From positions 330,718-384,314 of the forward strand of contig JBNGIO010006379.1 in the NCBI GenBank assembly GCA_049999805.1: a stretch of 53,597 nucleotides of DNA, in the 5' to 3' direction. Position 1 is the stretch's first letter, and every line of letters starts with the position of its first letter. Source of the DNA: Folioceros fuciformis. Its lineage: Eukaryota. A model generated the notes under the pieces. It was given only the letters and a program-made list of their open reading frames with translations. It was not told where the DNA came from and searched no databases. Made by a program: the position numbers and the translations under genes. This document shows positions 4,823 through 45,212 of the stretch, piece after piece.

Positions 4823-4952
4823 AAAGCTAGATCGTTGCTCCTTGCCAGCCGCATTGGAAGCTCACAGTGTAATTGTAAAAATGTGAAAATTCTAGAGGGA
4901 CTTGATAGAAGTACGGCAGCCTTGCCCTGCACCCCGATCGGATGCGTGTTGA

Positions 4953-5969: not shown

Positions 5970-16179
<10,210 letters not shown>

Positions 16180-17549
16180 ACAGGTATTGGGAAGTCAGCC
16201 CCTTGTCACGATCCAGTCCGTTTTTGGCCTGTATCTGCGGGCCTACCGGTGTTCTGCACTTGCGGATATATTAGATTATGTTCTATTTGCGGATTGAATC
16301 TTTTAAATGTCTGGTTCCTTGTTTGTTGTACCTATATGTAATTCACGGCTTTCAAGTTCTTTTCCTTTTCCCTAACTTCTGAAGTGTAAATGGTCAGCAT
16401 GACTGCATATTCAGGTCACAGCGGATGAGCTGAATATGTGAACCATTACGATGTACATATGGCTATGTATGTGACTCGCTAGGCTTGTTGGGTAATCAGC
16501 CTTTCCCGTGCTGGACAGTCTTTTCATAAAGGTCAGTTTTCATAAAAAAAAATGGTTTATATGTATCACTTTCCGGTGTCGGAGTGAATTACAGTTCAAA
16601 AAACAATTCTTTATTTACAGCTGGCAAGAGGGTTTCTTTTTCCGTGATATCGCAAGGTCGTGCTGGCCTGGCTGGGACAGGGTGGAACCGTTTGGTGTCC
16701 GAAGGGCGTGAAGCAACAAACGGAGTTAACACACAACGTGGTATGGATGTATTTAGGCGTTCAGCATTTTGAACGAAGGGGAGTGCGGGGAGAGGCAAAT
16801 GCGCGGAGAGAGAGGGACGGCAGCTACTTCAAGGGCCTGACACAGGCGTCTTGGTTCTGCCCTGGATCACATGTGACGGTGTCTCTGTAGGCACGCCAGC
16901 GCATTGCACCACGCGCAGTACACCTGCAGTCTGTATGTATCTGGATGCACGGCTGGCGGGTCTTGAGCTGGTTTTGCCCTCCTGCCTGCGTCCTCGGCTG
17001 CTGCAGGGGGCGCAGCTTGCACAGTGGTTGTTTCCGAGCCTGTGCAGATCTGCCTGGGGAGCTGGTGGCTGAGGACCTGCGTGTACAGCAATGCTGGTGG
17101 TTCTCCATCGTCCAGGACTTCTCTCTCCTGCCTTATAGCGCCTGTGAGTGCAAGGACTCGGGTCGGTAGGAGGTCAAGTGTGCCGACGTTGCTGCGTTGT
17201 ACTTCAAACAGTGTCGCATTTATCCGGCGAGCATTGTACTGCGGGCTTGTTGGTGGCGCAGAGAGCTGTGGTAAGGCACCGTCAGTGCTGTCCACCTCTG
17301 TCCGTCTCTCATGTCGCCTAATGTTTTGCTCATCGTTGAGCTATGTGCAGTGTGTCATGGCACCTCCAGAGGTTTCTGGTATTATTGGTTATGCATCATG
17401 CTGGTTCCATTTTGACCATACTTCCCATCATGTGCAGGTGGTACAAAAAGGTGAGGAACTGTTGCCCGGTCGAAAACCATTGCAGGAGCTCTAGTAGTAG
17501 CGGGGTGATCCTGTGTGGAGGGCTGGTTTGGTTTGTTTGGCACTGAGAG

Positions 17550-19124
17550 ATGGATGCCAAGCAGGCCAAGAGCTACGGTGCAATGAACGGCGGAGGAGGA
17601 GGAGACTCCACTGTTGTCATCAGGATGAGGCAGCGGTTGCCTGACTTTCTGCAGTCTGTCAATCTCAAGTATGTGAAGCTGGGCTACCATTATTTCATCA
17701 CCAACGCCGTGTTTGTCTTCACGGTGCCTGTGATGCTGCTGGTGGTAGCATGGATTGCCAGGTTTGGGAAGGAGGATGTTGAGCAGCTCTGGGAGCATCT
17801 GCAGTTTAATCTCATCAGTGTGCTTGTGTGCTCTGGTGCTCTGGTTTTTGGAGGAACATTGTTCTTCATGTTGAGGCGACGGCCTGTCTATCTTGTGGAC
17901 TTCGCATGCTATAAACCTGATGACGAACGTAAGGTTTCCAGGGAGCTGTTCATGAAGTGCTCCAAGCTTGCAGGAACTTTCACTGAAGACAACCTTGAAT
18001 TCCAAAGGAAGATTATTGAAAGGTCGGGGCTTGGGCAAGAGACCTACCTTCCTCCGGCTGTGATCAGAATTCCTCCAAACCCGTGCGTGCAAGAAGCCCG
18101 CCTGGAGGCAGAGACCGTCATGTTTGGTGCTTTGGATGAGCTGTTCGAAAAGACGGGGGTGAGGCCCAAGGACATTGGCATTCTGATTGTGAACTGTAGC
18201 TTGTTCAATCCCACCCCTTCTCTGTCAGCCATGATCATCAACCACTACAAAATGCGGGGCAACATTTGCAGCCTCAATCTGAGTGGTATGGGTTGCAGCG
18301 CGGGGATCATAGCCATAGACTTGGCCAGTGATCTTCTGCAGGTTCATGCCAACTCGTATGCAATCGTAGTGAGTATGGAGAACATCACCTTGAACTGGTA
18401 CTTCGGGAACAACCGATCTATGCTGGTGTCCAACTGTATTTTCCGCATGGGTGGAGCAGCCATCCTGCTCTCGAACAAGAGGTCCGAGAGGAGGCGTTCC
18501 AAGTATCAGCTGATGACCTCAGTCAGGACCCACAAAGGTGCCATGGACAAGTGCTACCGTTGTGTTTACCAAGAGGAGGACGAAGCTGGCCGACTCGGCG
18601 TTGCACTGTCCAAGGACGTCATGGCTGTGGCTGGTAGTGCTCTGAAGACCAACATCACTACTCTTGGCCCGTTGGTCCTTCCCTTCTCGGAACAATTCCT
18701 CTTCTTCGCCACTTGGGTTGCCCGAAAGGTGTTCAGGAGGAACATCAAGGAGTACATTCCCGATTTCAAGCTCGCGTTCGAGCATTTCTGCATTCATGCT
18801 GGAGGGAGAGCCGTTCTAGACGAGATCGAGAAGAATTTGAAGCTCACCGAGTGGCACATGGAGCCCTCTCGAATGACACTCTACAGATTCGGAAATACGT
18901 CCAGCAGCTCGCTCTGGTACGAACTAGCCTATACAGAAGCCAAGAGCCGAGTCCGAAAGGGCGACCGCGTGTGGCAGATCGCATTCGGCTCCGGATTCAA
19001 GTGCAACAGCGCAGTCTGGAGAGCGCTCCGAGCAGTCAAGCGCTCTTCAACTGGCCCGTGGGCCGACTGCATCGACAAACTCCCTGTGCCTGTCCCTAGG
19101 TGTGTATCCGTTGCGAATATCTGA
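17550..19124 (+). CDS. KCS: 3-ketoacyl-CoA synthase (FAE1/CUT1-type VLCFA condensing enzyme), intronless CDS
   Basis: 524-aa ORF with [19 protein letters not shown], two N-terminal TM segments, GMGCSAG (Cys), EHFCIHAGG (His), FGNTSSSS (Asn) and [16 protein letters not shown]. Confidence 0.97.
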
Positions 19125-19509
19125 TCCCCGTCACCCTTATTGCTCCTGTTGCTGCCAGTGAATGTGTTTACTGGCAAATCAGAGTCTCCCCATTAGAAAT
19201 CTGTAGATAGCCCTGTCTGATGGATGTGGACTTGATGGGAAACTGAAGTGCTAAAAAAATGCTAGTTACTGTAGGTTGTTGTCCATCTCATCCAATATAA
19301 TTCTTTATCTTCTTCATGCTCATCTCTCACCCCGATCTGAGTCTCTTTTCTGAGAGTGAGATGCGAGGGACTGAGGAGAGCAGAACCTCACAACTTTATT
19401 GTATTTTTTTGCATTTTACTTCATTTTATTTCATTGCAGTTGTATCCTTGTGGTAAGGTCCCTTTCTTCCTCCAGAGTTTGTGTATAGATGAGCTTATTT
19501 GCCTTCACG

Positions 19510-19635
19510 AAGAACGACGAGTTGGGGTTGAACCTAATGGTTTGCTGGAGGAGAATGCTGAACGACGAAGAAAGTGGTGTGGAAATCCAAGAACGACGAG
19601 TTGGGGTTGAACCTAATGGTTTGCTGGAGGAGAAT
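19510..19635. repeat. 79-bp tandem repeat running into a 100-N gap (19636-19735)
   Basis: aagaacgacgagttggggttgaacctaatggtttgctggaggagaat occurs at 19510 and again at 19589, where it ends at the gap. Confidence 0.85.
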
Positions 19636-19852
19636 NNNNNNNNNNNNNNNNNNNNNNNNNNNNNNNNNNNNNNNNNNNNNNNNNNNNNNNNNNNNNNNNN
19701 NNNNNNNNNNNNNNNNNNNNNNNNNNNNNNNNNNNCTTCTTGACGTTCTAGATACGAGTGCTGCTAGCATCACACTTACAGGAAGTGACGGTGGGGAAAT
19801 CTTCACCCCGAAAATGAATAGAGGCGAGATATGAAGACCAGTGGGAAGGGCG

Positions 19853-21632
19853 TTATTGAGAAATCTGTGCAGCGAGCCTAGTCCTAAGGTCGACAGGGAA
19901 TTTGTGGATGCAGTCGGACCAGGCGCTGTTGCCCGAGTCGGGAGGAATCGTGCGCAACGCGCGCCACACCGCGCTGTTGCACTTGAACCCTGAGCCGAAG
20001 GCGATCTGCCACACCCGGTGGCCACGCTTCACCCGGCCCTTTTCCTCGGTATAGCTCAGCTCGTACCAGAGCGAGGAGCTGGAGGTGTTGCCAAACCTGT
20101 AGAGTGTCATGCGCGAAGGCTCCATGTGCCACTCCGTCAGGCTCAGATTCTTCTCCATCTCGTCCAGCACGGCCCGCCCTCCCGCGTGGATGCACAGGTG
20201 CTCGAACGCCAGTTTGAAGTCCGGGATGTAGGGCTTCGCCTTGGGGTTGAGGAACTTCCTGGTGACCAGCGACACGAAGAAGCGCAGCTGCTCCGACAGC
20301 GGCAGCACTAGCGGCCCAAGCGTGGTGATGTTTGTCTTGAGCGCATCCCCCGCCACGCTCATCAAATCCCGGCTCAGCGAAACCCCGATTTCCCCCGCCC
20401 CGAGCCCCGCGTCGTCGCTCTCCTTGTCCTCCTTCTGATACACGCAGTGATAGGATCTGTCATCCGCTCCCTTGTGCGTCCGCACCGTATGCACCAGCTG
20501 GTACTTGGCTGTGCGCCTGTCTCGCGGCCTGTTGGAAAGCAGGATCGCCGCCCCGCCCATCCGGAAAATGCAGTTGGACACCAACATGGAGCGATCGTTG
20601 CCGAAGTACCACGCCAGGGAAAGATTCTCCATGCTCACCACCACGGCATAGGAGTTGGGGTGCACCTACAGGACGGCTTGCAATGTCACATTTTGACTTG
20701 AAATGAAGGAAAACGAGTGTCGCACAAGGAAAGAAACCAACGTGCATCGGCATCCCTGCGCGTGAAGACAAGACACGGATTACAGCACAAACCTGGAGTA
20801 GATCTTTGGCGAGGTCGATCGAGATGAGGCCGGCGCTGCACCCCATCCCGCCCAGATTCACGCTCTTGATGTTGCAGCGCATCTTGTAGTGGTTGACGAT
20901 CATGGACGAGAGGGAAGGGGTGGGATTGAAGAGGCTGCAGTTCACAGCCAAAATGGCAATGTCCGTGGGCTTCACTCCGGTCTTGGCGAACAGGTCGTCC
21001 AGCATGTTGAACATGACTTCCTCGGCCTCCAATCTGGCCTCCCGCATGGTGGTTCTTGGGGGCTCTGACAGGATGGCGGTGGGCAGGTACGTCTTCTGCC
21101 CGAGCCCCGACCTCTCCACGATGCGCCTCTGGAACTCGAGGTTCTCCGGCGAGAAGGTCCCGGCTGCGCGCAAGCACTGGATGTAGCGCTGGTGCGTGAC
21201 CTGGTAATTGTCGTGAGGCCGGTAGCAGGCGAAATCCACCAGGTACACCGCCCGGGGCCGCGACATGCCGTAGAGCGTGGCGGCGAAGATGAGCGAGCCT
21301 GTGCACAGCATCACGCTCACCAGGTTGTACTCCACCTTCTGCCACAGCTGCAGAAGGGCGTGGCCGTCCATCCCCATCCGCCCCATCTCCGCGAACACCA
21401 CGATCAAAAGCGGCAGCAGCAGCAGCATGATGCCGTGAGAGATGAGCCGGTGGTAGCCCAGCTTCACGTGCGCCATATTAACGGATTGCCGCAGGTCCGG
21501 AAGCTTCTGCCTGATCTTGATGGCCACTGCCGGGGACGCGATCAGCCTCGCGACGTGGATATTCCGCTCCTCCTGCCCGCTGCGCCCACCAGAGCCATTC
21601 ATCTCCCCGTCAGCATGCAACAGGGGCGCCAT
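19853..21632 (-). CDS. KCS: 3-ketoacyl-CoA synthase paralog, two exons (21632-20793, 20665-19853)
   Basis: Exon 1 ends DLAKDLLQ|gtttgt and exon 2 starts tag|[14 protein letters not shown]. Motifs [24 protein letters not shown] and [11 protein letters not shown] are present. The first in-frame ATG is at 21632. Confidence 0.96.
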
Positions 21633-23811
21633 TTCTCGCCTAGCTCCTCCGTCCAGCGCCAGAACTCCGTCAGTCTCGTGGGAAATCACTCCTTCATCTC
21701 ATCCCTCCGCTTGCAAGAACAAAATCTGCGTCACCCGGGTGCTGCACATCGTGGTCACGAAACACTGAATTAGCGCTAGCTAGTAACATATACACAGCCA
21801 GCCAGAGGCGGAACTCTGCGCGGCTGCAGCAGAGTGTGAATGCCAAGACACGAACTTGATCCTCTCCTTCGGTGAGGCTCACTGTGCAGAGCTTGTGTGG
21901 CGTGACTGCCACTCCCGGCACCCCTTAATTGAGGCCGGACGTGTACAAGTAGCAGAGCAAAGGACAGAGAGGGAGGCGACGCTCTCGATTGGGGACCAGG
22001 CAAAAGCATGCAGCTGGTCAGGGCCGCGTGGCAGAGGAGAGTGTGATAGAGGTGGATCGGCGTCTCTCCCCTCTTTAAGGCTCGTGGCTGGGCACGTTAG
22101 TTGGAGGGAAGGTAATGAAGTCCAGCCGGCCTTGCGACCCTGGGTAGGGGATGGGAGAACCTGTCCTGCTTACCTCTTAAATGCAGCTCGTGACGAGCAG
22201 CTTTCTGGAGAGTTCCCGGAGTTGCAAAGCTTAGGACCCACTGCCACTGCTGGCGGGAAAAAGATAGAGCAGCCGACGCGACAGGGAAAGGGGAACGAAT
22301 GATTCACTTATCCATAGGAGCCCTGGCCAGAAGTTTCGGCTGCGATGCCGCCTCCTGGGACCAGACTGGACTGGTGTGGAGCTCTACCAGCATCCCATTC
22401 AAGATCTGTCTGTAAGTATGTACATGTGTGAATAGTGCAAGGGCCCAATGCTAAAGAAGCGCAGCAGGTAGCCGCAACCGCCGGTCGCTCCTCTCTGCAG
22501 GCTATCGCAGGCTACGGCTGCCTTCACAGCTTTCAATGCTTAAACGTGCCATCATGCCGCTTTCCCAGTTGGTGAACGTACCCGTCTTTAGCTTGCGTGC
22601 GTTAGACGAGCATTTCTGTACCACGATCCAATGGCTTCAACAGGCTCTCAGACCTAAGCCCAAGTCCAAGTCCAAGTCCGCATCATCAAGAAGGCCTATG
22701 CATATCCTCTTTTGCAAGCAAAAACGATCACAGTTTGTACCAGCTGGTCGATCCCAGGCGCCCGATTCCGCAACCCGCAACTCGGCCATGCCCTCGCCCC
22801 CGGAGTCGTGCAACGGCTGAACTTTCGAAACGTTTCCCTCCCTGCAACAGCATTGTACGTTTAACTGCCACACGCATAACCGGCTTTTTCAAACACGGAG
22901 AGGGAAGTACCCCATGCAAGGAGTGATCCACCGTACCGTTGTCCATCCACAAGGGCTTCACATAATCTTGCTATGTTACATTAAATTTGCAACCGCGATG
23001 TCATTGGTTGCACTAATGTACCGGGTAACAGAACCAGGACTTGTCAATTCTCCTTACAAAAGCAGACCGAAACCTTGAATCCTATACCATACCTCCCATG
23101 TTCCCCAAGCTAATCCCTCGGTTCTTATCTCTCCGTTGATGGATCGATTTCCCATGTCTTCCCTTTCTTGGATAAAAACTTTAACTTTTACCTTTTCATA
23201 GTAAAGTAATATATTTTCTCCGACATGTCAAGTTTCATCAATTTGACAAACTAGACTTCGCTCGAGCGGAGTGGGGAGCCCCACACTAACACCCCATAGG
23301 TAGCCAGTTGTTCTTAAAGAATGAATAATTTGAGATTACAATTTCACTGGATAGTGCATAGAGTTACAGATGCGGAGTCAGCCTTGGACTCGGCGAGTGT
23401 CTCTCCGATACTGGATTGCACATACAAGGTGTCTTCCTCGATGGGGACCACTATTTGCTGTGAAGTTCAGATACTAACATCACTGGAACCCAACCTGCTA
23501 AACTTTTGACCAACCTCGCATTTCAGCACTGCCTCCATCACATATGACCTCTGCAGAGGTGGAGAAAGGACGGAGGGAATTACCTTGCATTAACTACTGG
23601 CCACCTGCCGAGAGCTCCTCTCGATCAAAATTGTAGGAGGTCGTAAGTCCCCCATGCTCTAATACTGGTACAGGGATCCCAAGCTGGAGCAGTCAACCGA
23701 CAGCACATGCATACACCATCCCGAAAGATCTGTCTTTCCCCTGGAAACTGGCGCAGCAAATGTGAGCCATGAGAGTGTAAGGCGGAACCGAAATCCATGC
23801 TTGACCTTCTC

Positions 23812-26800
23812 CTAGTACGGGTGCAGCAAGGGGTCTCGGTTGACATCCTTGTAGAGGAGATACCGCGATCTCGTGCGACCCAGAGCAGCATACCTGGTGC
23901 ATAAATACAGCAATATCAGGTTGGATGCACTCTGAGAACTGGCACCAAATAATCTGTCCAAATACAAAGCACAATACCACTGCGGGACAAAAGGAGCCAT
24001 CCAGATAACATCTCCAGCCTGCACTGGGTGCCTGCATTTAAGTCCACCACAAATCCTGTTACAGACCTGTTGCACCAACGGGGCCCGTGCCATACTAAAC
24101 TCCACGTCTTTAAAGATCTCTGATAGATCTTGTGACACCAGTTTCAAAGCCGGAACGACCAACAGACTTAACCTATCCCCGCAAATTACACCTACCATTT
24201 GTCTCCAAGCCGATATATACCACGTCCTTCCAAAAGAAGAAGACCATGTTGAAAGTAGTGCACCTCCTGGGAAACCCGAAGACAATATGCGAGATAACTT
24301 GTAATGTGAGTACTGGAAACTTATCACAAAAATTTCAAAAATCGTGCCACGATGATCAATCCACAATTCATAGTTGCATATACCTTGACATTCAAAAACT
24401 CGCCAGGTTGAAAATCCATGACCTATTACCACGTGAGACCCACCAGATTAGAAAACGACCCAAAGTCACGTACACTCTCTGCTACAGCTCACTAGACACA
24501 TACATGGATGTTGAAGTCGTAAGTTGACGATGTGGGTAGCAACTTCCGCAATGCAAATACCTGGAAAGGAAAGTGGCCAGGGGCTGAGCTCACAAACATT
24601 TTTTTCACCACATTTTTCAAACCTCATGGAAAAGTTCTCACCTCTCCAGGTGTCTCGAGCACAGGCTGCTTGTCTGTCACTCCTACAATCAGTTCTGGCG
24701 TATCCATGTGAACGATATCTTTGACGTATCTGTCATCAACGAACATCATAAGCAGTCAAAAGAACCATGGACTTCCAGAATGTTTTGAACAACAACTATG
24801 TAACGCGGGCATAATGTCAGGTGGCATCATGCAAACATCTTGCCATGTGGTGCTCGCACTCGAATCAGTGCCTCACATCCTCCCACATTTCACCGAGCAC
24901 GAGAAACATACCATTGAAGGAAAAAGGGATCAGCAAATTTTATTTCACATGAATGCTAACCTTCGCTCAAAAACAACAATTGTTGCTGCGTAGCTTGACT
25001 TCAGAGAGTGTTGCGTGTTCGGTGGCAAATAGGCAAACCAATCCACCTGGCAGCAACAAGTCAAAATGTATCACTAGGCTTTTCCAAAGGCTGTTCAAAT
25101 GTGTATGAAGTTAAGGAGAGGTCACGTAGCAAAACATAAGAACGGCACAAATGATATGAAGTCGTACATGCATATTGTAGCACTCAGTTGAACTGGTTGA
25201 AAGTTGTAATTCACCTTTCACAACAAAGATAAACCTGCATGGACCACATGCATGTCAGTGACGACGGTGCAGGCAAATGAATGAGGACAGACCACAGCAA
25301 CAACCGTCTTCAGGGAGCTTTGGACCAGGAATGCAATTCATTCAAGCAAATGCCACATGTCAAACAGAATACCTCTCAACGTCCCCAAGTGGAGGAGCAG
25401 AAGATGAATTACCTACACATGCAAAACATGTTCAGTTTGATGTGGAGAAAAAACATAGCTGCAGCAACAAGCACATACAGAACGATACACCGAATGAAAG
25501 AAACACCTAACAAGCAATGCAGCTCATATGTGGAAGCCCGAGACGAAATATCTAGAGGAACTACAACCACCTACGGAACAGCTCAATTTGAAGCTATGAA
25601 ACTGAGGGAAGACACTCCGGAAGAAAACCTTTCATTTGAGCCAAATACATAGAAAAATGAGACCCCATGGCTGGCGTGATCAAATAAGCACCCAATGTAT
25701 TCACCCTACAAAGAAACCCAGACCAGAAGATGTCAAGTCCTAAATTCCACCACCTTGTCGAGGTCAGGCGCGTGCCCCACAACAATGGGCAGAAGAAGCA
25801 TGGAAGAGGTCTGTCTGCAGAGCACACACACGACATTTGATATAACTCGAGCGAAAGGCAGAATCGAGTACCAGCCAGGCAAAGGACTGTAGACTTGGCT
25901 CTCTGGTGCAATGAGTGCATAATCCCTCTCATACACGCTTCTCGTAAATCCTGGTAAATCTGCACAGCACGCCAGAATGAAGTGGATATTAACGACGTTT
26001 GTTCGTGAGTGAACACCGTCAGCGTCCGGCTGTGTAATTATTATCCGGAAGATTTAAATACAGCTCCAAAAAGTGTAGCAGACGCTCATTTATCAGTTCA
26101 AGGCTAGTTGTCAACATTATCAAACTTGGGTTGCAGGGACTCGGAACGCTGCATGCCTTGCCTTCAACTGTGCACCATCCCTGTGCTCAAGAGAAATATG
26201 GCAATCGATGCCTGTCTGTAGGATAGGAGAATCCACTAAGCCAGAAAAGCCACAACCTGTAATGTGTGTGATCTTTTAGAATAATGAAATCTACCTCGCA
26301 AGTGAGCAGCTGCAAGAGTGGGCTCTGTGACTTTGGAGTAGACATTTTGTGCCCAAGGTTCCTCGGCGCCTTGAGCTCTACCAGCCGTTCCCGGAAAGTC
26401 CATGTCATCTGAGATATAAGATGCAGCCAGCCGCGAACTTCAGCAACTCAACGCAAACAAACACACAGGAGGCGAGGGATCCAAACGCAACAACACAAGC
26501 AGATCCAAGAGCCGGATAGAAGCGCCCAGGTGAGAGGCAAAGAACCCTAGACAGCGTGCAAGGAGGCATGGGCTTCGGAACGAGTGGTCCGGCGAAAGCA
26601 GCGTCGCCAGGCGGTGAGCAGCCACCACCATATTGCGGGCATTCACAGCGCGCCTGGCGGAGGCCAGCTAGTAGCCGTCGATGGACATGCACACCTACGG
26701 ACTCATAAATGGCTTGGAGCTGAGAACAGATAGAGAGCGAGCACAGTTGCGCACTGTGGATGGCACTTGCACCCTCACCTTCTTCCCAGCTGGAAGAGGA

Positions 26801-26914
26801 GCAGTAGCCAGCAGGCAGGTCGGCACCACACTGGTAAGAGCAGCAGCAGCAGCAGCAGCAGAGCAGCAACCGCAGTGACAGCAGAGGCAAAAAGCGTGAC
26901 AGGAGGGACGCCAT
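23812..26914 (-). CDS. UGLYAH: (S)-ureidoglycine aminohydrolase (bicupin), 13 short coding exons, N-terminal signal peptide
   Basis: Spliced translation includes [144 protein letters not shown] and [13 protein letters not shown]. This is colinear with Arabidopsis UGlyAH as I recall it. Confidence 0.95.
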
Positions 26915-27364
26915 GTCCGCGAGCTCGGCTCCACTCGCTTGCTCCCCAAAAACCCGCCGCCTGCACCTGTTCGCTGCAGCCGTGGTCCAAGTGACTCCGG
27001 GTGACGCCAGGGTGAGGCGTAACGGGGCGGGGCGGCGCGGGGCGAGGAGGAACGGCGCAGGCGCAGGCGCAGCCGCGAGAACACGCTCGGCTCGACTGCA
27101 GTAGCGTGCGTCGACCGCGCAGCCAGGCAGGCCAAAACAGGCCAGGCCAGGCCGAGCCAAAGGCGAAGCCCAGCCAAAGACGGTCGGGTTGGGACGGAAG
27201 GCTCAACTTTCGCCGGAGTTCAGGGGAAAAGGCAGCAGGCCTGACCTGCCGAGCGTGCGAAGCCCAGACACATCAGAATGGAGCAGCCACCATTTTTCCG
27301 TCCGTCCACGGCCGGCCCGGCGGCCATGGATGGATGGAAAAACGCTCCTTTCCTTTCCTTCCCC

Positions 27365-28870
27365 TTAGCCTGCCTGGCCTTGCCTCGCCCTGCCTGGCCT
27401 CGCCTCGCCTCCCCTCGCCTCGCCTTGACTTGCCTTTGCCTGGCTTCGGCTCTGCCGCCGCCACAGATCTGCAGCTGCTGAGGCTGCTGCTGCTGCTGCT
27501 TGCTGCTGCCCGGTCCCGCCTGGCTGCCTTGCTCTAGAACATTGTATGATATGCTTCTGAGCTGAGCTGAAGCGCAATTTGCAACTGGACAAGTGGACGA
27601 GACGCTGCTGAAGGAAGAGGAGGAGGAGGAGGAAAAGGAAGACGAAGCAGGAGAGAGTGGTGAAAGTACCGTCGCCAGGCTCGGCCTCGTCGTGGTGCGT
27701 GGAGAGCTTGGGCCTCTTGCGGAGATGTCTTCTCCNNNNNNNNNNNNNNNNNNNNNNNNNNNNNNNNNNNNNNNNNNNNNNNNNNNNNNNNNNNNNNNNN
27801 NNNNNNNNNNNNNNNNNNNNNNNNNNNNNNNNNNNGGGCCCCCGGGGGGGGGCCAGGGGGAGGGGCGGGGGGAGCTGGGAGGCGGAGGAAGGAGCATCGT
27901 CGGAGAGGGGCAATGGCAGGGGCAAGGGCAGGGCTGGGCGTGGCTGCTTGGTGGTGCGGCCGACGATGGAATCCATCTTTGCAAACCATTGCCACTTGGT
28001 CTTGGCGGAGCCTGTGGTGAACATTTTATCCTTTTCGATTTTGTGGCGCTTCTTGAGATTGTCCAGCTTGTTGCGGCACTGCAGCACGCTCTTGGCGGGC
28101 TTGTTGCCATCGGCCCGCGCGTTCACTGCGCTAGTTACTTCCTCCCAATCCCGTCCCCGCAAGTTCCGTCCGTTCAATTCTTCATTCTTATCGGTGAATG
28201 CGTCCAGCAGCGAATTGATGGCTCCATTGCTCCAGTCCGCGAAGGTATCCTTTTGCTTGCCCCTGCCCGACCCTGCTGCCCCTGCTGTCCCCGCTGCTAC
28301 AACCACTGCTGAAGCCGAACCTGCCCCTGTTGCTCCTCCTGCAGCAGCTGCCGCAGCAGCCGATGCTGCTGTCGCCGTTATGCTTCCTGCTGGTGTCAGG
28401 CTTCCCGTTCCCCCCTTGCCTCCTGCTCCTGCTACCAGTGGTGATGCCGTGCTACCAGGCCCCTCGCCCTCCCGCACGCTCTCCGCCCGGTCGGTCTCGG
28501 GGCTCTTGGCGTCCAGCGACTCGCCTTCGCTGGTGGCAGTGGCCGTGGCCGTGGCCATGGCCTGATCCATGGCTGGCGCGGAGGCGGGCCCGGGCCCGGG
28601 CCCGGCCCCCGGCGAGCCGGCAATCTGGTGCAGGAATAACCCCTGTTGCTGCTGTTGAAGCTGGTGCAGGCGATGCTGCTGCTGCTGCAGAAGTTGCTGC
28701 TGCTGCTGCTGTTGTTGTTGTTGTTGTTGCTGCTGCTGCTGCTGCTGTTGTTGTTGCTGCTGTTGGAGCTGCTGGTGATGGTGATGGTGGCGGGTGAAGG
28801 AGGAGGAGGAGGGAGAGGGAGGAGCGGCGGCAGCAGCATGGATTCCCAGCGGATGAGCTCCATTCGCCAT
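27365..28870 (-). CDS. Trihelix (Myb/SANT-like, SIP1/ASIL-type) transcription factor with polyH/polyQ N-terminus; 3' end uncertain because of a 100-N gap (27736-27835)
   Basis: DWSNGAINSLLDAFTDK...LRGRDWEEVTSAVNAR...KSVLQCRNKLDNLKKRHKIEK is a single trihelix domain. ATG at 28870 (MANGAHP). The stop may be near 27365 or 27220 depending on splicing and gap size. Confidence 0.85.
   Translation of the reverse strand: MANGAHPLGIHAAAAAPPSPSSSSFTRHHHHHQQLQQQQQQQQQQQQQQQQQQQQQQQQLLQQQQHRLHQLQQQQQGLFLHQIAGSPGAGPGPGPASAPAMDQAMATATATATSEGESLDAKSPETDRAESVREGEGPGSTASPLVAGAGGKGGTGSLTPAGSITATAASAAAAAAAGGATGAGSASAVVVAAGTAGAAGSGRGKQKDTFADWSNGAINSLLDAFTDKNEELNGRNLRGRDWEEVTSAVNARADGNKPAKSVLQCRNKLDNLKKRHKIEKDKMFTTGSAKTKWQWFAKMDSIVGRTTKQPRPALPLPLPLPLSDDAPSSASQLPPPLPLAPPRGPXXXXXXXXXXXXXXXXXXXXXXXXXXXXXXXXXXRRHLRKRPKLSTHHDEAEPGDGTFTTLSCFVFLFLLLLLFLQQRLVHLSSCKLRFSSAQKHIIQCSRARQPGGTGQQQAAAAAASAAADLWRRQSRSQAKASQGEARGGEARPGRARQGQAG
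28674..28790. repeat. CAG/CAA trinucleotide tract encoding polyQ, with adjacent polyH codons
   Basis: (gct)n/(gtt)n runs on the + strand inside the trihelix ORF. Confidence 0.92.
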
Positions 28871-28953
28871 GGCCCGTCCCGCCGTTGATGGATGCCCGGT
28901 GCTGCGACTTCCTTCCGTACCTGTTCCACCCACGCCAGCCAGGTACCATACCT

Positions 28954-29080
28954 TTCCTTCCCTCCCCTTTCCTTCCTTCCTTCCTTCCTTCCTTCCTTCC
29001 TTCCTTCCTTCCTTCCTNNNNNNNNNNCCTTCCTTCCTTCCTTCCTTCCTTCCTTCCTTCCTTCCTTCCTTCCTTCCTTC
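28954..29080. repeat. (CCTT)n microsatellite containing a 10-N gap (29018-29027)
   Basis: Directly visible. It lies immediately 5' of the trihelix start codon. Confidence 0.95.
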
Positions 29081-31683
29081 TCCTCCCTCCCCTTCCCTAG
29101 CGTAGCGTTGCGTTGCGTTGCGTCGGCTTTGGGCCTGGGCTGGGCTGGCTGGCTGCCCGCCCTCCAGGCTCCGTTCCGCTCTCTCCCTCGTGGGCCGCTG
29201 CCCCCCAGTCGACTACACTGCACTGGTGATGACTGTGGTCGAGTCTAGACTCGTCGACGACGACGACGACGGCTCCCGAGGGCCCCCCTCTCCTCTCCTC
29301 TCCTCTCTCGCTTCCCTCGGCTGATCTACATCGCACTTTTTCCCCTTGTAGGTACGACGGCCTGGCACTGGACGGACGGCAGTGGTAGGTAAGGTTACCC
29401 CACCTACTCCGACGGAAGTTCCGTTAACCGCGCGACTGTTGTCTTGCCCATTTCCCATCTCCCGTCTTCCCTCTTCCTTGGGCATGGTCTTCGTCCCCCG
29501 CTCCCGGCTCCCGGCTCCTTTCTTTCTTTCTTTTTCTCTTGTCTTGTCTTTCACCTGCTGGCAGTGCTGCTGCTCGTGCTGGTCTCGCAATTCAAATCGA
29601 TTCTCATGTCCCTCTCTCGTCTCTGCGAGTGCGCGCTGCACAGGGCCCTCTGCGGCGCGGCACCGTTAGCCAGCCAGCCAGATGGGCCTTGCATAGTGAA
29701 AGGAATCCGAATGTTGTGTACCTAATATTAATTATAACGCCATCTTCATCAGCCTATCTCATCAGCCGCGTGGTGAATGATTCCATTCCCACTTCCATTC
29801 CGCTCTCTCCGTCTAGCTCTTCGATATCAGCAGGCGCCAAGGCCAGAGGGCGGGGCAGCGGCAGGGGCCAGTGGCCAGGGGCAGGGGCAGGAATCCTGGC
29901 TTACTGCTGTCGTGATGTCGCAATTACTGACGCGGTACATCCAACGATGTACAACGGCTGTACATACACGGAGGTAAGTGGTGTGCGGTACAACGGGGTG
30001 CGGGAAACGGGCAGCGGGCAGCGGGCAGAGCAGCGAGGACTGGCACCACCCGCACGCGTTCACTTCACACAGTCACGCCCAAGAGCACAGGCCTGCTACA
30101 GGATGCTCAGCAGCAGCGGCATCAAGAGACCGATGAAGCTACAGCACCCAGCACACAGCACACTGCATACTGCATACTGCACCGCACCGCTGCAGCCTGC
30201 GCTCCTTCCCTGCCGGGTTGGCCCAAGTTGGGAGATGATGATCGTCGTCAGGAAAATGAAGGCAAGGGAATGATGAGGCTGCCCTAGCAACAGTGTGGAA
30301 GTCCCGACACCCTGAGAGCTCATCTGGCGCCATGAGATGCGATGCGATGCCTGGAGAGGTCACAGCTGGATGTGTTATTTAGGGCAGCGGGCTGCGGCAG
30401 CCATGACCATCAATGTCTCTCTCGGCTCTGACACAGGATCGCTCCCGGATCTGCTGGGTACTGGCCCGCATTAAGCTGGTCCTGGCCGATCTGTGCTGTA
30501 GGGCGTGGGACTCTGGTGCTGCTGCATCGGGAGCTCCAGCCTCCAGCTCCCAGGCCCCAGCATGTGGGGGGCGCCTCACAGGCATGGGACCAGGGGCCCT
30601 ACAACCTTCTCTTCTCTCTACAACGGGGGGAGATTTCTAGTCTAGACCTGGTAGATTTCCATGTCCAAGGAATATGGATGGAATCTCTGGGCTCCGCCAG
30701 GGCAATTGGGCAATCGGGCAATCGGGCAATCAGGCAACAATCTCGCCATCAGGCAACAATCGGGCAACAATCGGGCCATGCGGGTTTGCAGTCCCTCGGC
30801 CGTGGGCCGCCCGGGCCTTCCGCTGCCTCTGCCAGAGCCAGTGCCGGTGCCAGGGCTGTGTCCAGGACACACACACTGGATTGCTGGATGCTTCATCCCT
30901 TTTGGAAGGAATATCGTGACGTGGTCGACAGCAACACGCAAAAAGAGAGCACAGGGTACCCGGCCAGTGCCCTACTCTCATCAGCCTTTTGGCACACGCT
31001 CCACCTGCACTAAACCCATTCCCAACCGGCATCCCCCACACAGTGGGTGGCACACTCAGAGCTGGGTGCCACAATCTCACACTTGGGTGCCCAGAAAAGA
31101 TTTCTTTCATATCAACCCTTCCACTTTTCTGTTTTTTAAACCAATCGGTCCATTATATTTATATTCCACACGCCACTCACCGCTCTCCATGAAACGCGCT
31201 AATCCATTACTGTACGACACCACGTATCATGTGCCGCCCCTATGGCCAAACAACAACAACAACTTGATTTATGTTCACTAGGATGAAACAAGAGATTATA
31301 GATCTATAATAATAATCAGTGACAGGTGATACTACTGCCTCATTCAACTTCCAATTACGCATTCCATCCACACACACAAATGATCTTATCAAGGGTAGGT
31401 GATGCCATTCCCATGGAGTATGTCATAAATTCTATGAAAATACTTCATCACAACCATGTTAATTACCTTCAATTGATATATTTATTTCATGTAATTGAAT
31501 AATTGGAATGAGCTTTCTAATATGACCTAAAACGTTGTTATGCGCATACCTTAATACAACAATATAAGATATAGAATTCAAGCATAAGAAGTCAACTTGC
31601 CTAAGCCTAGTGCATGCAATGTGTCTCCTTGTACATTCTTCATTGTGTTTTATTTATTTTGTCAACTAATTGTATTATATCTT

Positions 31684-31754
31684 AACCGCATAGCATGATG
31701 GATTAGTGTGTTGGAGGGATCCAAAGGTTGTGGGTTCAAATCCCATCGTGGTTG
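31684..31754 (+). pseudogene. Decayed tRNA-like sequence resembling plant cytosolic tRNA-Arg(TCG); probable pseudogene or SINE head
   Basis: aaccgca-tagcatgatggattagtgtg-ttgga ggga tccaa-aggtt-gtggg ttcaaat cccat-cgtggtt-g folds as a cloverleaf with A- and B-box-like motifs. The anticodon loop is only 4 nt. Confidence 0.7.
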
Positions 31755-32385
31755 TCCAAGGGATGTATTTGTAATCCTTAAATTTTGATTATGGCTCAAG
31801 TTTTTATAGCAAGAACAAGTTTCACTCTAACAAAACAAGACAAGTGTTCATTGTGAGGACATATTTCCCTCAAGGAATCATGTTGATTGTTTTGATTGGA
31901 AGAAGAAGTCTATGATTGAACTTTATACTTCACAACTCATACCATATTGAATCTACTACTACTTGCACTTAGGGTTGAATATGCTACTTGCGTTGTTGAA
32001 TCTGCTACAAATTCCATCTTGGTTGTCCAAGAGATAAGTTTGTTAACCTTAAATTTTGATTATGGCTCGAGCTTTTACAGCAAGAACAAATCTCCCCCTA
32101 AGAGAACAAGACAAGTGTTCATTGTGAGGACAGATTTCCCTGGAGGAATTATATTGATTGTTTTGATTGGAAGAAGAAGTCTACGATTGAACTTCAAACT
32201 TCACAACTTCATACTTCACAACTTGTACCATATTAAATCTGCTTCTACTTGCACTTAGGGTTGAATATGCTACTTGTGCTATTGAATTTGTTATTACTTG
32301 TATTTAGGGTTGAATATGCTATATATACTGTTAAATATACTACTACTTGTACTTAGGGTTGAATGTACTTCTTGCACTAAGGGTA
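31744..32385. repeat. AT-rich ~270-bp tandem duplication plus short acttg(c/t)acttagggttgaat repeats
   Basis: ggttgtccaag...ccttaaattttgattatggctc...aagacaagtgttcattgtgaggac...ttgattggaagaagaagtcta occurs at about 31750 and about 32021. Confidence 0.85.
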
Positions 32386-32963
32386 TTCTTTCCTTCCACA
32401 TGGGTAACTATATATCATTCCCTTTTGTTGTAAAAAACCAGCATATTCTTTGTGGTACTTTTCACAATCCAAAGGTCACCCTAATCTCCTCAATCTCCAT
32501 GCTTGTTTCTAGAATAGATATTTTGAATACAAAATATATATTATATTCTAACAAATGCGATGCTATGGACCGGGCTACTACATGGTCAGCTAGGGACACG
32601 CAGAGGCAGTTCACCAACGGTAGCCCCAGTCCCATGGTAATGGTGAACCGCTCACAAGACTTCACCGTGTTACGCTCCGCTACTTTTCATCACAAGTCTG
32701 TACAATCTGCTGTAAGATTGTTAAAAACATGCCTCAACTGGCCATGGCCATGGCTCTGCCCCGCCCGTCACTTTTCTCTCGGAACCTTGTTTCGTCTGTA
32801 ACATCTTAACAAAACAGGATGGAACGGCTGTTTCACGGCGAGAACTACGATTCATGTTGTCCGGTTGACGCAAGGCAGACTAGTCTATTCGAGTCAAATG
32901 TGCAGCTCTAAGCCTGTAAGGATCTAGAACCTTTCGCATCGCTGGATGCAACACTGCAGCTCG

Positions 32964-35445
32964 CTAGTCAACTACAGAAAGCCTCGCAAGGACGAAAGAG
33001 AGAAGCTGCACCCCTTTACCGATGTCCTCTTTGGAAGCGTACTCATCTGGTCTGTGACTGTAACCTGCATTGGCAGAAGGCAAGAACCTGGTCAACGTGA
33101 CTCAAACATGTTGAAGGAGCGGGGGAACAACTCATTTGCCAACCAACCTTTGTGACACGGAATGAAGATCATGCCCGTTGGTGCTATCCTGCAGGTGCAT
33201 CGACAAGAAGTCAATTTGAGGATTGTGCTGCCAGGCAGCTAAACAGCATGGAACAGTTCCAATCAGCTGCGTTAAAAAGCTACAAGCTAAAACCTGGCCA
33301 TAAAAAGAGAGTCGTGATACGCTCTGCTAATCATCATCTTGTGCGTTAGATTAAGTTGGTCCACTCCCATGAGCGCTGCTTGGATTACTTTGTCGGAACT
33401 CACAGCCGGTGGATCCTGATTGACGATCTCAAGGTTTGAGAGCTCCACATGACGTTCAGATGCTATGTGCTGGGCTGATGACAGAATCTTTTCCACAACT
33501 TTATCTCGCCTCTCCAAGTCGATGTCCCGAACGTCTGCAAACCCACCTCACCTGCTGTCATTACCTAGGCATTTGACATGCTTCACAAGCAGTGGATGGA
33601 CAACATGCTCGAGGCCAACTGCTTTCTGACCTATCATCAGGTGGGCCTCCCTCGGAATGCTGTTCACTGCTCCTGGATGAATCTCCAACACCCCTGTCAC
33701 GCCACCAAGATATCGAGCAGTGTAAGGCTTCAGTCAAGCTCAGCCTTCCTGCACCACATGCTATCGAAAATGACCTGTGGTGCCGACAGTGTCGATGGAT
33801 CCCGAAGCCAAAACGTGTTTTTCCACTGCCAACATCAGCTCAGCAGCCGCTAGGCCCGCATCATTCCTGATCAAGGTAGTAATAAAGTGAACCTGATTCT
33901 GCAAGCGGCATACAACAGAGAAACGAAAGAAACTTGCCCTGCACAAACTTGCACCGCATATCTGACCTCAATGGCATCAGGACGGCCCCTGCATGGCCAC
34001 CTCCTCCTTTGAAGCTAACTTTCAGAGTTGCTGGGGCTGCGATCGCTTTTACTATCCCAATGGATCGGCCTGCCACCAATCACAGAAGAGATGATAATGT
34101 AGGAAACACCCACTTGACAAGTTACTACAACCGATCGTCAGTGCTAGTGGCGTTCGAATAAGTCTTTACAGGGGTGAAGGTGACCCTATAACTCTTGCCT
34201 TCCTGTTCCAGAATAGGTCCCTGCTCGATGTGAAGCTCCACAAAAGCCTGATAGTGATCAGTGGCAAGAGTGACACTCTCCAGATCTTCGTCCGTTCTCA
34301 AGTAGCCTGCGTGCCTTGCAGCATCGGCGAAAGAAATATTCTGTGCATCAACTGCCCCTTTGAGAATCTCTAGGATGCCTTCACTGCCTGCAAGTGCCCG
34401 ACTGCGGATTTTGACCCGAACGCAACACAAGTTTAAAGGCTGCTCCTTACACTGCAAAGGCTAGACGACATGTATGATTCTTCAGTACGTCGTACGGTAC
34501 CTTCCAATGCAGCCCAAGCCAAACCGTGTAGGCTCTTCAGAAGTAAACATGATCACCTCCACCGACCTTTTGGGCTGAAATCCCGCTCTGCAAGAGTCAC
34601 CACAAGAGGCCAGTTGACGTCCCTCAAGCGCAGCAAAAGCACAAAGCTCCAAACCAAGGCGCAAACCTTTTGAGCGTGCGAATTGCCTCAATACCTCCCA
34701 ACACACCAACAACGCCATCATACTTCCCCGCAAATGGAATCGCGTCCATATGTGAGCCAGTGGCCACTGCCTTCAAATTTGCCTCCGTTCCATGCCTACA
34801 ACAACGCTATCAAAAGCGAAAGGAGAGTCCATGCTTGAATTCTACTAACACAAACAACGAAGACAAGCCTACCAGCGCCCGAAAATGTTGCCAATTGCAT
34901 CCTCTCGCACAAAGAGTCCAACGGACAACATCAACTCCTTCACGTAGCTGAAAACAATCCCAGAAGCACAAATATTTGTAGTTGCTTTCTTCTAGCGATT
35001 TGCAGTTCCATCTGCTACAGCTGATTGGGAGCTTTAGCTACCTGCGGGCGGCCACATCCTGGTCTGTGTAGAGAACACGAGTTACAGAGGGGTGGGGCGA
35101 TTCGGAGAGCAAAGCCAGTTCGTGTATCTGCCAGCATGTGCAATTTGGAGCACCATGAGTTCCCGTCCTCTCCACAGTCTGGCACAAACTCAGGAATCGG
35201 AAGACGGAAAGTACTACCTGGCGCTCTAGCCGGTGGACATCCACATCAAAGGGAGCCCCCTTGGATGGGACATCCTCCGATCCACAGCGAGTGGAGAAAG
35301 CATCGGGGTAGGCCACTTCGGCAACCGAACTGATGAGTGGCTCGGCTGAGACCCACACCAGCAGAAGCAAGGACATCAACAGAGTGCACGCTATCCTCCA
35401 AACTTCGCCACGTTCGGCCCAGCCAGGACAAGCCGAACTGGCCAT
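32964..35445 (-). CDS. UAH: Ureidoglycolate amidohydrolase (peptidase M20/amidohydrolase family), multi-exon, N-terminal signal peptide
   Basis: Motifs PSVTRVLYTDQDVAARR, REDAIGNIFGRW, VATGSHMDAIP, GKYDGVVGVLG, FTSEEPTRFG, ELHIEQGPILE, GGHAGAVLMP, NDAGLAAAE, NQDPPA, MISRAYHDSLFMAR and GYSHRPDEYAS. ISRAYHDS identifies UAH, whereas AAH has SGAGHDA. Confidence 0.95.
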
Positions 35446-35849
35446 TTCGAATGGAGCGATCGCAGCAAGCAGCACATGCGAAACAGGATGCAAACAAACG
35501 TAACAAGTGTACATGACCATAAATATGCCCGTCGGCGATAAAAAAGTACGGTCCAAAGCAAAGCACATTTTCAGAATCGAGACACTCCTCGCCGAGGTTT
35601 CCCGTAAACCAAAAATACGTAAGGCCGTTCCTCCTCTCACTGCTAAATTTCTCGAGAACTATGAAGACGCCACAGCACACACCATGTACTGCTGCCTACG
35701 TACTGGTCGACTCCTCGACCACTTCAACGCAGCACCTCATCGACGTGCTAAAGTGCGGTACCTCCAGTTCCGACCAGGAGGATGAATTTTGAAGAGGTCA
35801 CTGTCGGGATGATAGTCTACAGGTAGCAAAGCGAGGGGCACAGCCTGGA

Positions 35850-38800
35850 TTAACCCCGCCAGGTAGACCTTGAAGCAGAGCGTAAACTTGCTTCCGAAGA
35901 CGCGCTGCCTTTCCCTCGCTTCTGCTCTTCGGTCTGCTCTGGTTTTGGCACACTCTGCATCCAAGTTCCAACGATTTGAGCACATCCACAAGACTCTGGC
36001 CTTACGACAAGGGCAAGCATTACACGCAGTCACACGTGTGTAAACTTACCTGGACTGGAGACAGAGGCGGTTTCTTTGCCTGTTTCTTAGTCTGTGATTG
36101 TGAATCCCGATGCAACCGATGCTGGTGCTGCATATGCTCGAATTGCTTCAACCTCTGCACAAAGTTAATGCCACTCGATCCATTAACCAAATCCGCATTT
36201 TTGTCTCCGTCGTCACTGGGTTGTGAACCACTAGGGAATTGCGATAATATCTGAGCATAGGGTCCCCCAGAGGCAGTTCTCCTTATGGCATTCAGTCCAG
36301 AGTAATCAGAACTTGAGGTCGTTCCTGGAGCTTGAGTGAACGTATAAGGCGGAATCGTTTTCAACCTTGTCCGTAAGATCTTGAAAGCTGCACTTTGCTG
36401 TTTCCGTCAAAAAGACGCCGGCCAAGGGTTCCAATACCGTCAGTAATCAGCTCTCAACTTCAACATCAAATAACCCTAGCCTAGAGAAACAGACTTAGTT
36501 CCAAAACGAGAATCAACAAGTACCTGCGGTAGTAACATGAGAAGTCCATATAAAGTCTTCAGAAGCGCAGGATACCGTGCAGGCTCTAAGAGCTTCACCA
36601 CGAACACGTCCACAGCAGGTCCAACTACGATTATCAAGAGCTAGAACTCAAGGGAGTAAAAGCACAGACCTGGACACACTCACAACATACCTGCAGCCGC
36701 AGGTACGCAAAAATTGGGGTTTCCAGAAGCCGAATCAACTTATCAACTTGGACCAGCAAATTGACATTGATATCAGATTCACCCAAAGACTGGATAACCG
36801 ACGTGGCATGCTGATAAGCCTGCAAGAAACGAGCAAGTCAGATACAACTCCAAGCACACCCCTTCAAAATTTCAAGATCAGTGACATCGTAAGTACCTGG
36901 GCAAGCAAGCAGAGACTAACAGTAGCCATCGGAGAGTGGCACCAGGATGAATACAGCGCAACAAATAGATCCCTCCCATCTGAGTTTGTAAGAGACTGTT
37001 TCAACAACGAGCGCAGATCTGCCAGCTCAACGGCAGTGAGCAGGATCAAGTTCAATGCCTGCAAACAACCCAGAAAAGCACCGAGGGTCTGAGTTGAGAT
37101 CACCCAAACAAGGTCAATTATCATCACCAATCCAGAAACTAACAAAGTCCCGTCCACTCCCCACTTCTGACTGACACACTTTATGAACATCAGAGGGCCT
37201 ATTTTTAACACCAAATCTGTGGAATAACATGTCCAGTTAGCTGCCTGGCTCAAAGCTATCACCAGCGATGACATCACATTTTCCCAGATTTTTACAAGTC
37301 TGATGTTTCAGCACACCAATAACAACTCACAGCACAGACTGGTGTGTCACTCGGGCACTCCAAGCACATCTCCAATTCAAAATGAACGTCATAATCAGGC
37401 TCAGACTTGCTTTCTACATGAGCGTGTCCTGGTGCACTTAAGAGGTCGGAAAATTTTCAAGCAAACGCAACCGGCGAGGACAGATGATCACTCAAAGGCG
37501 AAAACTTCACCCTGTGATGAAATTAACAGCAGAAAGGCATAACTTTCGCACCTGAACCATCACAGATGCGAATTCCAGATCTGCTTCTCCTTCTAGAATG
37601 GTTGCAACCTCTCTGTACACTCTCTCTGCATCTAGAAGGACACAAAGTCGTCGGATGGCCAGAATCCCTCGTCTACACACACCATATGCGCGTCACACAA
37701 CTAGGCAACTTTAACCCACAGCAACGGCTTGTCACATGATCTTGTCTGACCAGTATATCTGGGAGGCACAGAAGCCTACTTTTCAAGCAAGGCTGGCTCA
37801 TTGTTGAACTTATGAAGCAAGAAGACCATCAGATGGCGGAAGTGTTGGGGGTCCTGCGCTATGCCGGCCTGTACCTCTAAAACTAGCAGAACAACCTGCA
37901 TTGCATAACCTCAAAGATTAGCAGATGGCAACAACACTCGGGAAAGATATTTGCAAGCACATGACAGTGGCCTTACTTCATCTGAGGTGTCTGACAGTGA
38001 CCGGAATAGTGCTGGAAATATATCGTCAAGAAAGGATAGAACCTAAATGTACAAGAGAAGCTCACAAACTTGAGCCAGCTGCATGGACAGAGGGAGAGAC
38101 AAACTTTGAGTCAATGTAAGAGGTATCACACCAGGCTTTCCCACCTCAGTCCTGTCTCTCTGTAGCAGGACATGAATCCATCGCAGTGCCTCAAGCCTTG
38201 TTGACTCCCATTCACTTCCAAGCTGACTGTAAACATTGAACGTGAATTTCCGAGGTGTCAATCAGACTCAAAACTTATCTTTACGTTCTGATAATATGCG
38301 ACAAGGAATCTGGACTGGGAACATGGGTACGACCCATGCACTAAACAGAAAAGAAAAACTGAAGGACTGGCCTTTCAAAACGAACCATGTTACCTCCTTG
38401 CAACAGTGAGCACGGCGGCCATGTCAAAGCCATCCCCTGGATTAGCATTAATTGCCCTAAGTGCATCGTTAGTTTCTTTTGCAACCTGCAATTCCCTGGG
38501 GCGTGTTGGTCAACATGACATGTACGGGCAATATGCATGAATCGACTTTAACCTATAAATGAATGATTCCCTGCTTTCCAATGATCTTGCTTGCCATCAT
38601 AGCTTACCGCTCGTATCTTCTCCTCCTTGTCTGAAATACAGGGTAGGATGGCTCCTAGGATATCTGAGTAGTATCGAACAAGCTGCTCACCTCCTAATTT
38701 TACAAATTCGTGCACCTGGATACAGAGAGTGTGAGCAACCTCCCAGATTTATTACAGTCTTATCTAGATTCAATTGTCCTCCAAAGTGATGGGAAAAGAA

Positions 38801-45145: not shown

Positions 45146-45153
45146 TATAAATG
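45146..45153 (+). promoter_or_regulatory. Putative TATA box of the RNase T2 gene
   Basis: ctataaat lies about 60 nt upstream of ATG 45213. Confidence 0.5.
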
Positions 45154-45212
45154 ACTTCCTAGAATTCCAGATCTGTGTTGTGGAACAGCAAAGAGTCCGA
45201 AGCTTTCAGACA

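Follow-up and report, generated by a model that had tools for sequence, protein, structure and literature searches.

In the hornwort Folioceros fuciformis, the genes of two consecutive enzymes of ureide breakdown, (S)-ureidoglycine aminohydrolase (UGlyAH, a cupin) and ureidoglycolate amidohydrolase (UAH, of the M20 family), stand about 6 kb apart on one strand, separated by a gene for a trihelix transcription factor. The stretch analysed, hereafter the window, comprises the 53,597 nucleotides from 330718 to 384314 of contig JBNGIO010006379.1 (our C6379) in assembly GCA_049999805.1 (87.2 Mb, 7240 contigs). In four genomes, those of three land-plant lineages and of one alga, at most one gene comes between the two, judged in three of them by gene numbering, and the linkage is very probably ancestral. 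We favour the reading that the two genes lie close together by inheritance, in a pairing older than land plants, which selection for coordinated expression has probably kept. The enzymes are known; what is apparently new is their linkage as a conserved gene neighbourhood.

The UGlyAH and UAH genes of the window

Both gene models have open reading frames on the minus strand, UGlyAH from an ATG at 26914 to a stop at 23812 and UAH from an ATG at 35445 to a stop at 32964. The exons of both genes were located by six-frame translation and by tblastn with homologues. Contigs of one own-species run (X3) splice out 11 of the 12 UGlyAH introns, all with GT-AG ends, and for the 11 UAH introns show nine listed joints, of which one is GC-AG; the three remaining junctions were set by the best homologue match. 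X3 is counted as RNA because its contigs splice, no listed run being recorded as such. Both genes are transcribed in this run.

UGlyAH shares 65-73% identity with its counterparts in bryophytes, lycophytes and angiosperms (66% with Selaginella) and UAH shares 61-70% with plant UAHs, pointing in both cases to full-length orthology. In trees, UGlyAH groups with land-plant UGlyAHs, the window protein forming its own branch apart from Selaginella, mosses, liverworts and angiosperms. With 66% identity, this separate branch and an LCIB gene in the genome (see below), Selaginella is not supported as the source lineage; a hornwort is likely. Its metal-site motifs are present at residues 265, 304 and 317 and agree with the sequence of PDB 4e2q (Arabidopsis UGlyAH, At4g17050), which a UGlyAH homologue matched. 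We take the motif residues to be the Mn-site Glu, two His and a Gln, together with a C-terminal Tyr and Lys; Phe replaces Asn in the metal motif, as it does in Diphasiastrum and Selaginella. UAH retains the binuclear metal-site motifs, and its homologue matched PDB 4pxb and 4pxe, the former being Arabidopsis UAH (At5g43600). At residue 425 it carries S-R-A-Y-H-D, with Tyr at the Tyr423 position, where an AAH-like gene of the same genome (on contig C6380) has Gly. According to the relevant passages of PMC13751858, Tyr at position 423 marks UAH and Gly marks AAH, and co-occurrence with AAH separates UGLYAH from UGLYAH2; UGlyAH co-occurs here with the AAH-like gene and thus falls under UGLYAH. 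It is also the sole match to TIGR03214 among the genome matches listed. Family searches of the genome placed each family in at least one location, and one gene of each was found. The signal peptides that the earlier note read at both N-termini, and with them targeting to the ER, are putative: their basis is hydropathy, with hydrophobic stretches whose 11-residue Kyte-Doolittle maxima are 2.55 and 2.85.

Contamination or recent transfer is ruled out by the 12 and 11 introns and by the grouping with land plants. Altogether these are real, intact, spliced plant genes, whose enzyme identity is assigned by sequence. An earlier note on this DNA had described two intact genes on the same strand, about 6 kb apart with a trihelix gene between them, and its coordinates prove exact.

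Contiguity across the 100-N gap inside the trihelix gene, which had been flagged as a point to verify, is secured: the gap is tiny and bridged. A contig of a related organism, C (27046-28328), crosses it with 65 letters where the window has 110 (27735-27846), a contig of a second relative, B, likewise covers both sides, and the letters of an X3 RNA contig sum to the same length (38+24+3 = 65). The difference of 45 keeps the trihelix frame and brings the true distance between UGlyAH and UAH to ~6.0 kb. A misjoin at this gap is excluded by the bridging contigs of B, C and X3.

A single RNA contig (26779-27699) joins the 3' part of the trihelix gene to UGlyAH exon 1, with ~450 nt between the likely trihelix stop and the UGlyAH ATG. 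This may reflect overlapping untranslated regions or read-through, or the contig may merge separate transcripts. A second X3 contig stops at the UGlyAH exon-1 boundary, 26779.

The pair in distant genomes

Diphasiastrum complanatum, a lycophyte, has UAH (O6H91_01G128900, KAJ7570625) and UGlyAH (O6H91_01G128700, KAJ7570621-22) on the same 101.6-Mb chromosome, with a single locus tag intervening. In supplementary file 5 of PMC6374488, an orthogroup table, UGlyAH and UAH have adjacent numbers both in the alga Klebsormidium nitens (kfl00022_0210 and kfl00022_0200) and in the moss Physcomitrella patens (Pp1s29_184 and Pp1s29_183). Four genomes, the hornwort's included, thus have the orthologous pair inside a span of six genes, three of them by gene numbering; a conserved eukaryotic gene neighbourhood calls for three or more genomes of two or more classes.

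We estimated the chance of finding this named pair so close in one genome at ~1.6e-4, a value that is not remote across all pathways, and the chance per distant recurrence at ~1e-4. The gene totals of the other genomes in this estimate are assumed round numbers. For the hornwort the total is 24,700-25,800, from PMC8075897. The pair was fixed before the look-ups in distant genomes, and at ~1e-4 per recurrence common descent becomes the plain reading. That the linkage might be an accident of a gene-dense genome, as the earlier note allowed, is countered by its recurrence in alga, moss and lycophyte: three distant genomes exclude chance.

Flanking genes behave differently from the pair. No orthogroup row out of nine (five from Klebsormidium scaffold 22, four from Physcomitrella scaffold 29) joins these two scaffolds. 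Two extra rows, a false prefix match and a distant gene, were dropped, neither being common to both scaffolds, and three immediate neighbours are missing from the table. The earlier note had named as refuting a linkage absent from related genomes amid otherwise conserved gene order, together with a lack of co-expression; between alga and moss the pair is kept and the flanking rows are not (0/9). Collinearity is limited among bryophytes and between bryophytes and vascular plants, as summarized in the synteny passages of PMC8075897, and the main text of PMC7826186 places 0.5-1.9% of chlorophyte genes in neighbourhoods common to Klebsormidium. Because of the flanking result and this limited collinearity, we conclude that the pair outlasts its surroundings and is conserved beyond general synteny, in a small control on two genomes.

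The remaining ureide pathway is scattered. Besides the AAH-like gene on C6380, the assembly holds matches to allantoinase on C6119, HIU hydrolase/allantoin synthase on C6281, uricase on C6897, urease on C6142 and ureide permease (UPS) on C994, C6345 and C6079, together with XDH-like genes on C2532 and C1657. The seven other pathway families searched, which did not include nucleoside hydrolase, guanosine/guanine deaminase or XMP phosphatase, have no match on C6379. A whole-pathway cluster is thereby rejected, although in an assembly of 7240 contigs looser linkage on one chromosome is possible. AAH and allantoinase lie on other scaffolds than the pair in Klebsormidium and Physcomitrella too. Since the other ureide genes are on other contigs, the locus is a two-gene pair and not the ureide pathway cluster first proposed. 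Some of the matches, XDH-like (C2532, C1657) and permease (C994, L012-L015), have long open frames; some could derive from associated microbes or be paralogues.

Selection, neutral relic or operon remnant

UGlyAH converts ureidoglycine to ureidoglycolate and ammonium, and UAH breaks ureidoglycolate down to glyoxylate, ammonium and CO2, no urea being formed. Ureidoglycine and ureidoglycolate are both unstable, as stated in passages of PMC13751858 and PMC3793230. Matched expression of the two enzymes would then keep nitrogen going to ammonium rather than leaking as urea, and a common chromatin or regulatory neighbourhood would favour their pairing. Proximity would be kept in lineages whose genomes were seldom duplicated or rearrange slowly and would have been lost by angiosperms. 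The trihelix gene would be a later insertion and not a regulator of the pair; it is best read so because the pair has no gene between in alga and moss. We lean towards selection as the reason for the survival of the linkage.

Several observations weigh against this. Adjacency in Klebsormidium, Physcomitrella and Diphasiastrum is a matter of gene numbering, without DNA or strand, and kfl00064_0140 is a second Klebsormidium gene in the UAH orthogroup, so that adjacency holds for one of two genes whose sequences are unseen. The flanking control covers 11 of ~32 prefix places in only two genomes. In all 19 angiosperm comparisons, placed from locus tags or contig records with unlisted duplicates outside view, UGlyAH and UAH are on different chromosomes or contigs; this applies to Arabidopsis, as had been stated beforehand, and to rice, four Prunus species, Striga, Genlisea, Oldenlandia, Ulmus, Cornus, Euphorbia, Ziziphus, Morus, Nicotiana, Ranunculus, Orobanche, Castilleja and Erythranthe. 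The dataset of PMC12541418 has both Chlamydomonas genes on chromosome 6, far apart, with unequal fold changes under nitrogen starvation (16.8/15.2 versus 3.1/3.9), and the PMC6374488 table has those of Cyanophora on different contigs. At two Sphagnum-like loci (L047, L049) UAH is missing from the 9.3 kb upstream and the 7.5 kb downstream of UGlyAH, in a check of ~10 kb on either side with other copies outside view. The synteny looked for thus holds by numbering in the alga, the moss and the lycophyte and fails at one Sphagnum-like locus. Since the pair is split in angiosperms, Chlamydomonas, Cyanophora and this locus, it is dispensable. In the hornwort a whole gene separates the two, which makes a shared promoter impossible in this genome; any effect would pass through the regulatory or chromatin neighbourhood, or else the hornwort state is a decaying relic. 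No listed contig of B or C connects 31042 with 32806, a repeat lying between, and contig depths cannot rank the genes by expression.

For some further lineages the records are as follows. Marchantia UGlyAH is MARPO_0072s0097; its UAH tag was not found in the parts searched of PMC9946954 (AAH only), PMC12185132, PMC8075897 and the PMC10823260 supplements (files 13-16 excluded). Selaginella UGlyAH is absent from its row in the PMC6374488 orthogroup table, where the identifiers carry no position information. The Picea pair lies on separate small scaffolds and is uninformative. Long eukaryote-looking loci (L023-L025, L031, L034, L051, L062) have no UAH match, and their organisms may lack UAH. The expression row of kfl00022_0200, the Klebsormidium UAH, is non-rhythmic. 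Upstream of the Sphagnum-like UGlyAH are RAF1 (Rubisco accumulation factor 1) and an MBOAT gene; at L047 (6948-13647) UGlyAH stands head-to-head with RAF1, ~1.4 kb apart.

The strongest alternative, which we regard as possible but rather doubtful, is a neutral relic: two genes adjacent in the streptophyte ancestor remained unbroken in four slowly rearranging lineages, proximity having no function. The losses just listed, in 19 of 19 angiosperm comparisons and at one Sphagnum-like locus, agree with it, as does the gene that has entered between the pair in the hornwort. In the main text of PMC7826186, moreover, 169 neighbourhoods common to Klebsormidium and chlorophytes form a background of ancient pairs, and the family of Diphasiastrum is known for slow rearrangement. 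Against a relic without function stand the nine flanking rows, none of which is kept between alga and moss, and the nature of the survivor, a pair of consecutive enzymes that bacteria pair too.

In bacteria, plant-type UAH, defined by at least 44% identity, occurs in 55 of the 80 bacterial loci listed, and UGlyAH is directly upstream in 45 of these 55 and downstream in none; several of the other ten are short contigs. Among the 25 more distant M20 loci listed, UGlyAH is directly upstream in one. Of 48 metagenome loci retrieved with UGlyAH, five bacterial ones have plant-type UAH just downstream. One of these five (L044, 2631-17588) contains a near-complete purine route in a single bacterial gene run, UGlyAH followed by plant-type UAH included; the other genes we take to be deaminases, malate synthase, OHCU decarboxylase, HIU hydrolase, AAH, allantoinase and XDH, three of the names having been checked. 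In such purine operons (Verrucomicrobiota, Acidobacteriota, Planctomycetota, Deinococcota) the same two orthologous families stand side by side, but the operons are intronless, larger and have UGlyAH first, whereas the window pair is intron-rich, with UAH first, a transcription factor between and the other steps elsewhere.

A bacterial UGlyAH-UAH unit could have entered the plant ancestor whole, and the eukaryotic adjacency would then descend from it. This claim about origin is compatible with later selection, and we consider it unlikely on present evidence. Beyond the paired bacterial and metagenome loci, it draws on a FastTree of 27 chosen paired loci, made without a rooting test, in which plant UAH is sister to the bacterial plant-type clade, lying beside and not inside it. 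One plant UGlyAH also matches PDB 1sfn, presumably a Deinococcus protein, better than YlbA. PMC3493653 records an earlier proposal that plant UAH came from bacteria, with linkage unmentioned in the relevant passages. On the other side, neither quick tree, for UGlyAH or for UAH, puts the plant genes inside a single donor lineage; the hornwort order, with UAH upstream, is the reverse of the bacterial one, and with the trihelix gene between them the two do not stand as an operon unit. The non-adjacent orthologues in Chlamydomonas and Cyanophora would require an earlier transfer and several losses. The fuller version, in which an early alga acquired the operon unit a single time and selection kept the remnant intact in streptophyte algae, mosses, hornworts and lycophytes until genome duplications in seed plants split it, we likewise hold to be improbable. 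If true, it would make the pair a primary-metabolism mini-cluster older than land plants.

Very unlikely is the version first proposed, a ureide cluster with the trihelix gene as its local regulator. The gene does lie between the pair and adjoins UGlyAH in organism C and, by record length, in B, and the Diphasiastrum gene between the pair (01G128800) could be a trihelix gene too. Yet the pair is directly adjacent in Klebsormidium and Physcomitrella, B and C are close relatives (~90% alike) in which synteny is expected, and the remaining pathway is scattered; the regulatory role is not supported. Chance juxtaposition or misassembly in this genome is scarcely credible: although the 10-N gap at 29018-29027 is not shown bridged and the own-DNA comparison (23600-28630) leaves out 28630-36000, contigs do span the 100-N gap, and no misjoin would reproduce an adjacency that three distant genomes show independently.

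Related systems and surroundings of the locus

Plant gene clusters are usually seen as young and tied to specialised metabolism; biosynthetic clusters usually comprise at least three enzyme genes and are lineage-specific. The window pair resembles them in linking non-homologous enzyme genes of one pathway, but it belongs to primary metabolism, is common to an alga, and numbers two enzymes instead of the three or more non-homologous genes of the usual definition. Arabidopsis UGlyAH and UAH are orthologous, with the metal and specificity motifs conserved, but unlinked.

Closer parallels are the conserved neighbourhoods of green algae (urea, nitrate, urease assembly) described by Foflonker and Blaby-Haas, in the main text of PMC7826186: these too are functionally linked, non-homologous genes of nitrogen metabolism that have stayed a few positions apart for hundreds of millions of years. 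That study covers nine chlorophytes and Klebsormidium but no land plants, whereas the pair reaches moss, hornwort and lycophyte; and it is not adjacent in Chlamydomonas. The words 'ureid' and 'purine' do not occur in its main text, the supplement excluded. The DAL cluster in the yeast Saccharomyces cerevisiae is likewise a eukaryotic grouping of allantoin-breakdown genes, but it has six genes, with urea-releasing enzymes, and a recent relocation (per the passage in PMC13751858), whereas the pair has two genes, of the ammonium-releasing route, and is apparently ancestral.

Full-text searches of the open literature did not find the linkage, though the moss adjacency may have been noted in subscription articles about these plant enzymes. 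It is absent from the searched passages of PMC13751858, PMC7826186, PMC3793230, PMC3493653, PMC9667741 and PMC13691922; the genomic-organisation section of the first, a 2026 review, names bacteria and yeast. If our reading holds, a core nitrogen-recycling pair that has stayed together all the way from streptophyte alga to lycophyte would mark, as few loci do, the ancestral gene order of land plants. It would also let one test directly why pathway genes stay together in eukaryotes, because the two genes are adjacent in the moss Physcomitrium and naturally separate in Arabidopsis and rice. The pair further bears on the source of the urea-free purine catabolism of plants.

Table 1 Features of the window, in order of position
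Feature	Position	Strand	Basis or remark
Serine carboxypeptidase, oxidoreductase-like N-terminal protein, U-box protein, RNase T2 and ankyrin-PGG protein (ordinary neighbours)	2318-5432, 43929-51334		
Multi-exon gene with TPP-enzyme and alpha/beta-hydrolase domains	~5800-16200		domain matches
Two convergent 3-ketoacyl-CoA synthase (FAE1/KCS) genes	17547-21698		100-N gap 19636-19735 between
UGlyAH, cupin	23812-26914	-	13 exons, 332 aa; RNA contig joints and homologue-guided model
Trihelix (Myb/SANT-like, PF13837) transcription factor gene, poly-Q N-terminus	27365-28870	-	Pfam E 2e-13; RNA contig 27846-28662
100-N assembly gap inside the trihelix gene	27736-27835		spanned by contigs of C and B and by X3 letters
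10-N gap in pyrimidine-rich microsatellite	29018-29027		overlooked by the earlier note
Non-coding block conserved in B and C	29133-31042		RNA contig 29350-29751; overlooked by the earlier note
tRNA-like fragment (31684-31754), then degenerate direct repeats, AT-rich	31684-32397	+	Rfam 38.7 bits; overlooked by the earlier note
UAH, M20 family	32964-35445	-	12 exons, 482 aa; RNA contig 32522-35482 and model
VAC14, 3' part, upstream neighbour outside the pair	35512-37307	-	PF11916

Within the interval between the genes (Table 1), the 3' end of the trihelix gene is uncertain; it falls at 27365 if the frame continues unspliced. The relatives B and C were compared through their listed contigs, 68 further rows being outside view. 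In C the trihelix contig overlaps the UGlyAH contig, so the two genes adjoin there as well; in B their adjacency follows from record length, and both organisms conserve the UAH-VAC14 block. At ~90% likeness to the window, such synteny says little about selection. Contigs of both appear, by record length, to end near the 10-N gap from either side, and no listed contig is shown to bridge it.

In the conserved block beyond this gap, the longest plus-strand frame has no Pfam match, and no Rfam family reaches its gathering score. Its RNA contig starts at an acceptor-like site on the plus strand and may be an unannotated transcript, divergently oriented to the trihelix gene. ARAGORN makes no call at the tRNA-like fragment, which is followed by direct repeats spaced 49 to 286 nt and has one match in the genome; B and C do not cover ~31800 to 32590. 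The whole looks like a decayed tRNA-derived element. Apart from this piece, the interval has no microRNA or other Rfam family.

Upstream of the pair, 30 nt lie between the end of the VAC14 RNA contig (35512) and the UAH contig (35482), which would set the UAH promoter within the VAC14 3' end. The sequence on both sides of the gap between the two KCS genes appears duplicated, and the multi-exon gene at ~5800-16200 we take to be the fused phylloquinone gene PHYLLO. The genome also carries a spliced LCIB gene (PF18599, above cut-off), a family that PMC8075897, in its passage on LCIB, finds in hornworts and absent from other plant lineages.

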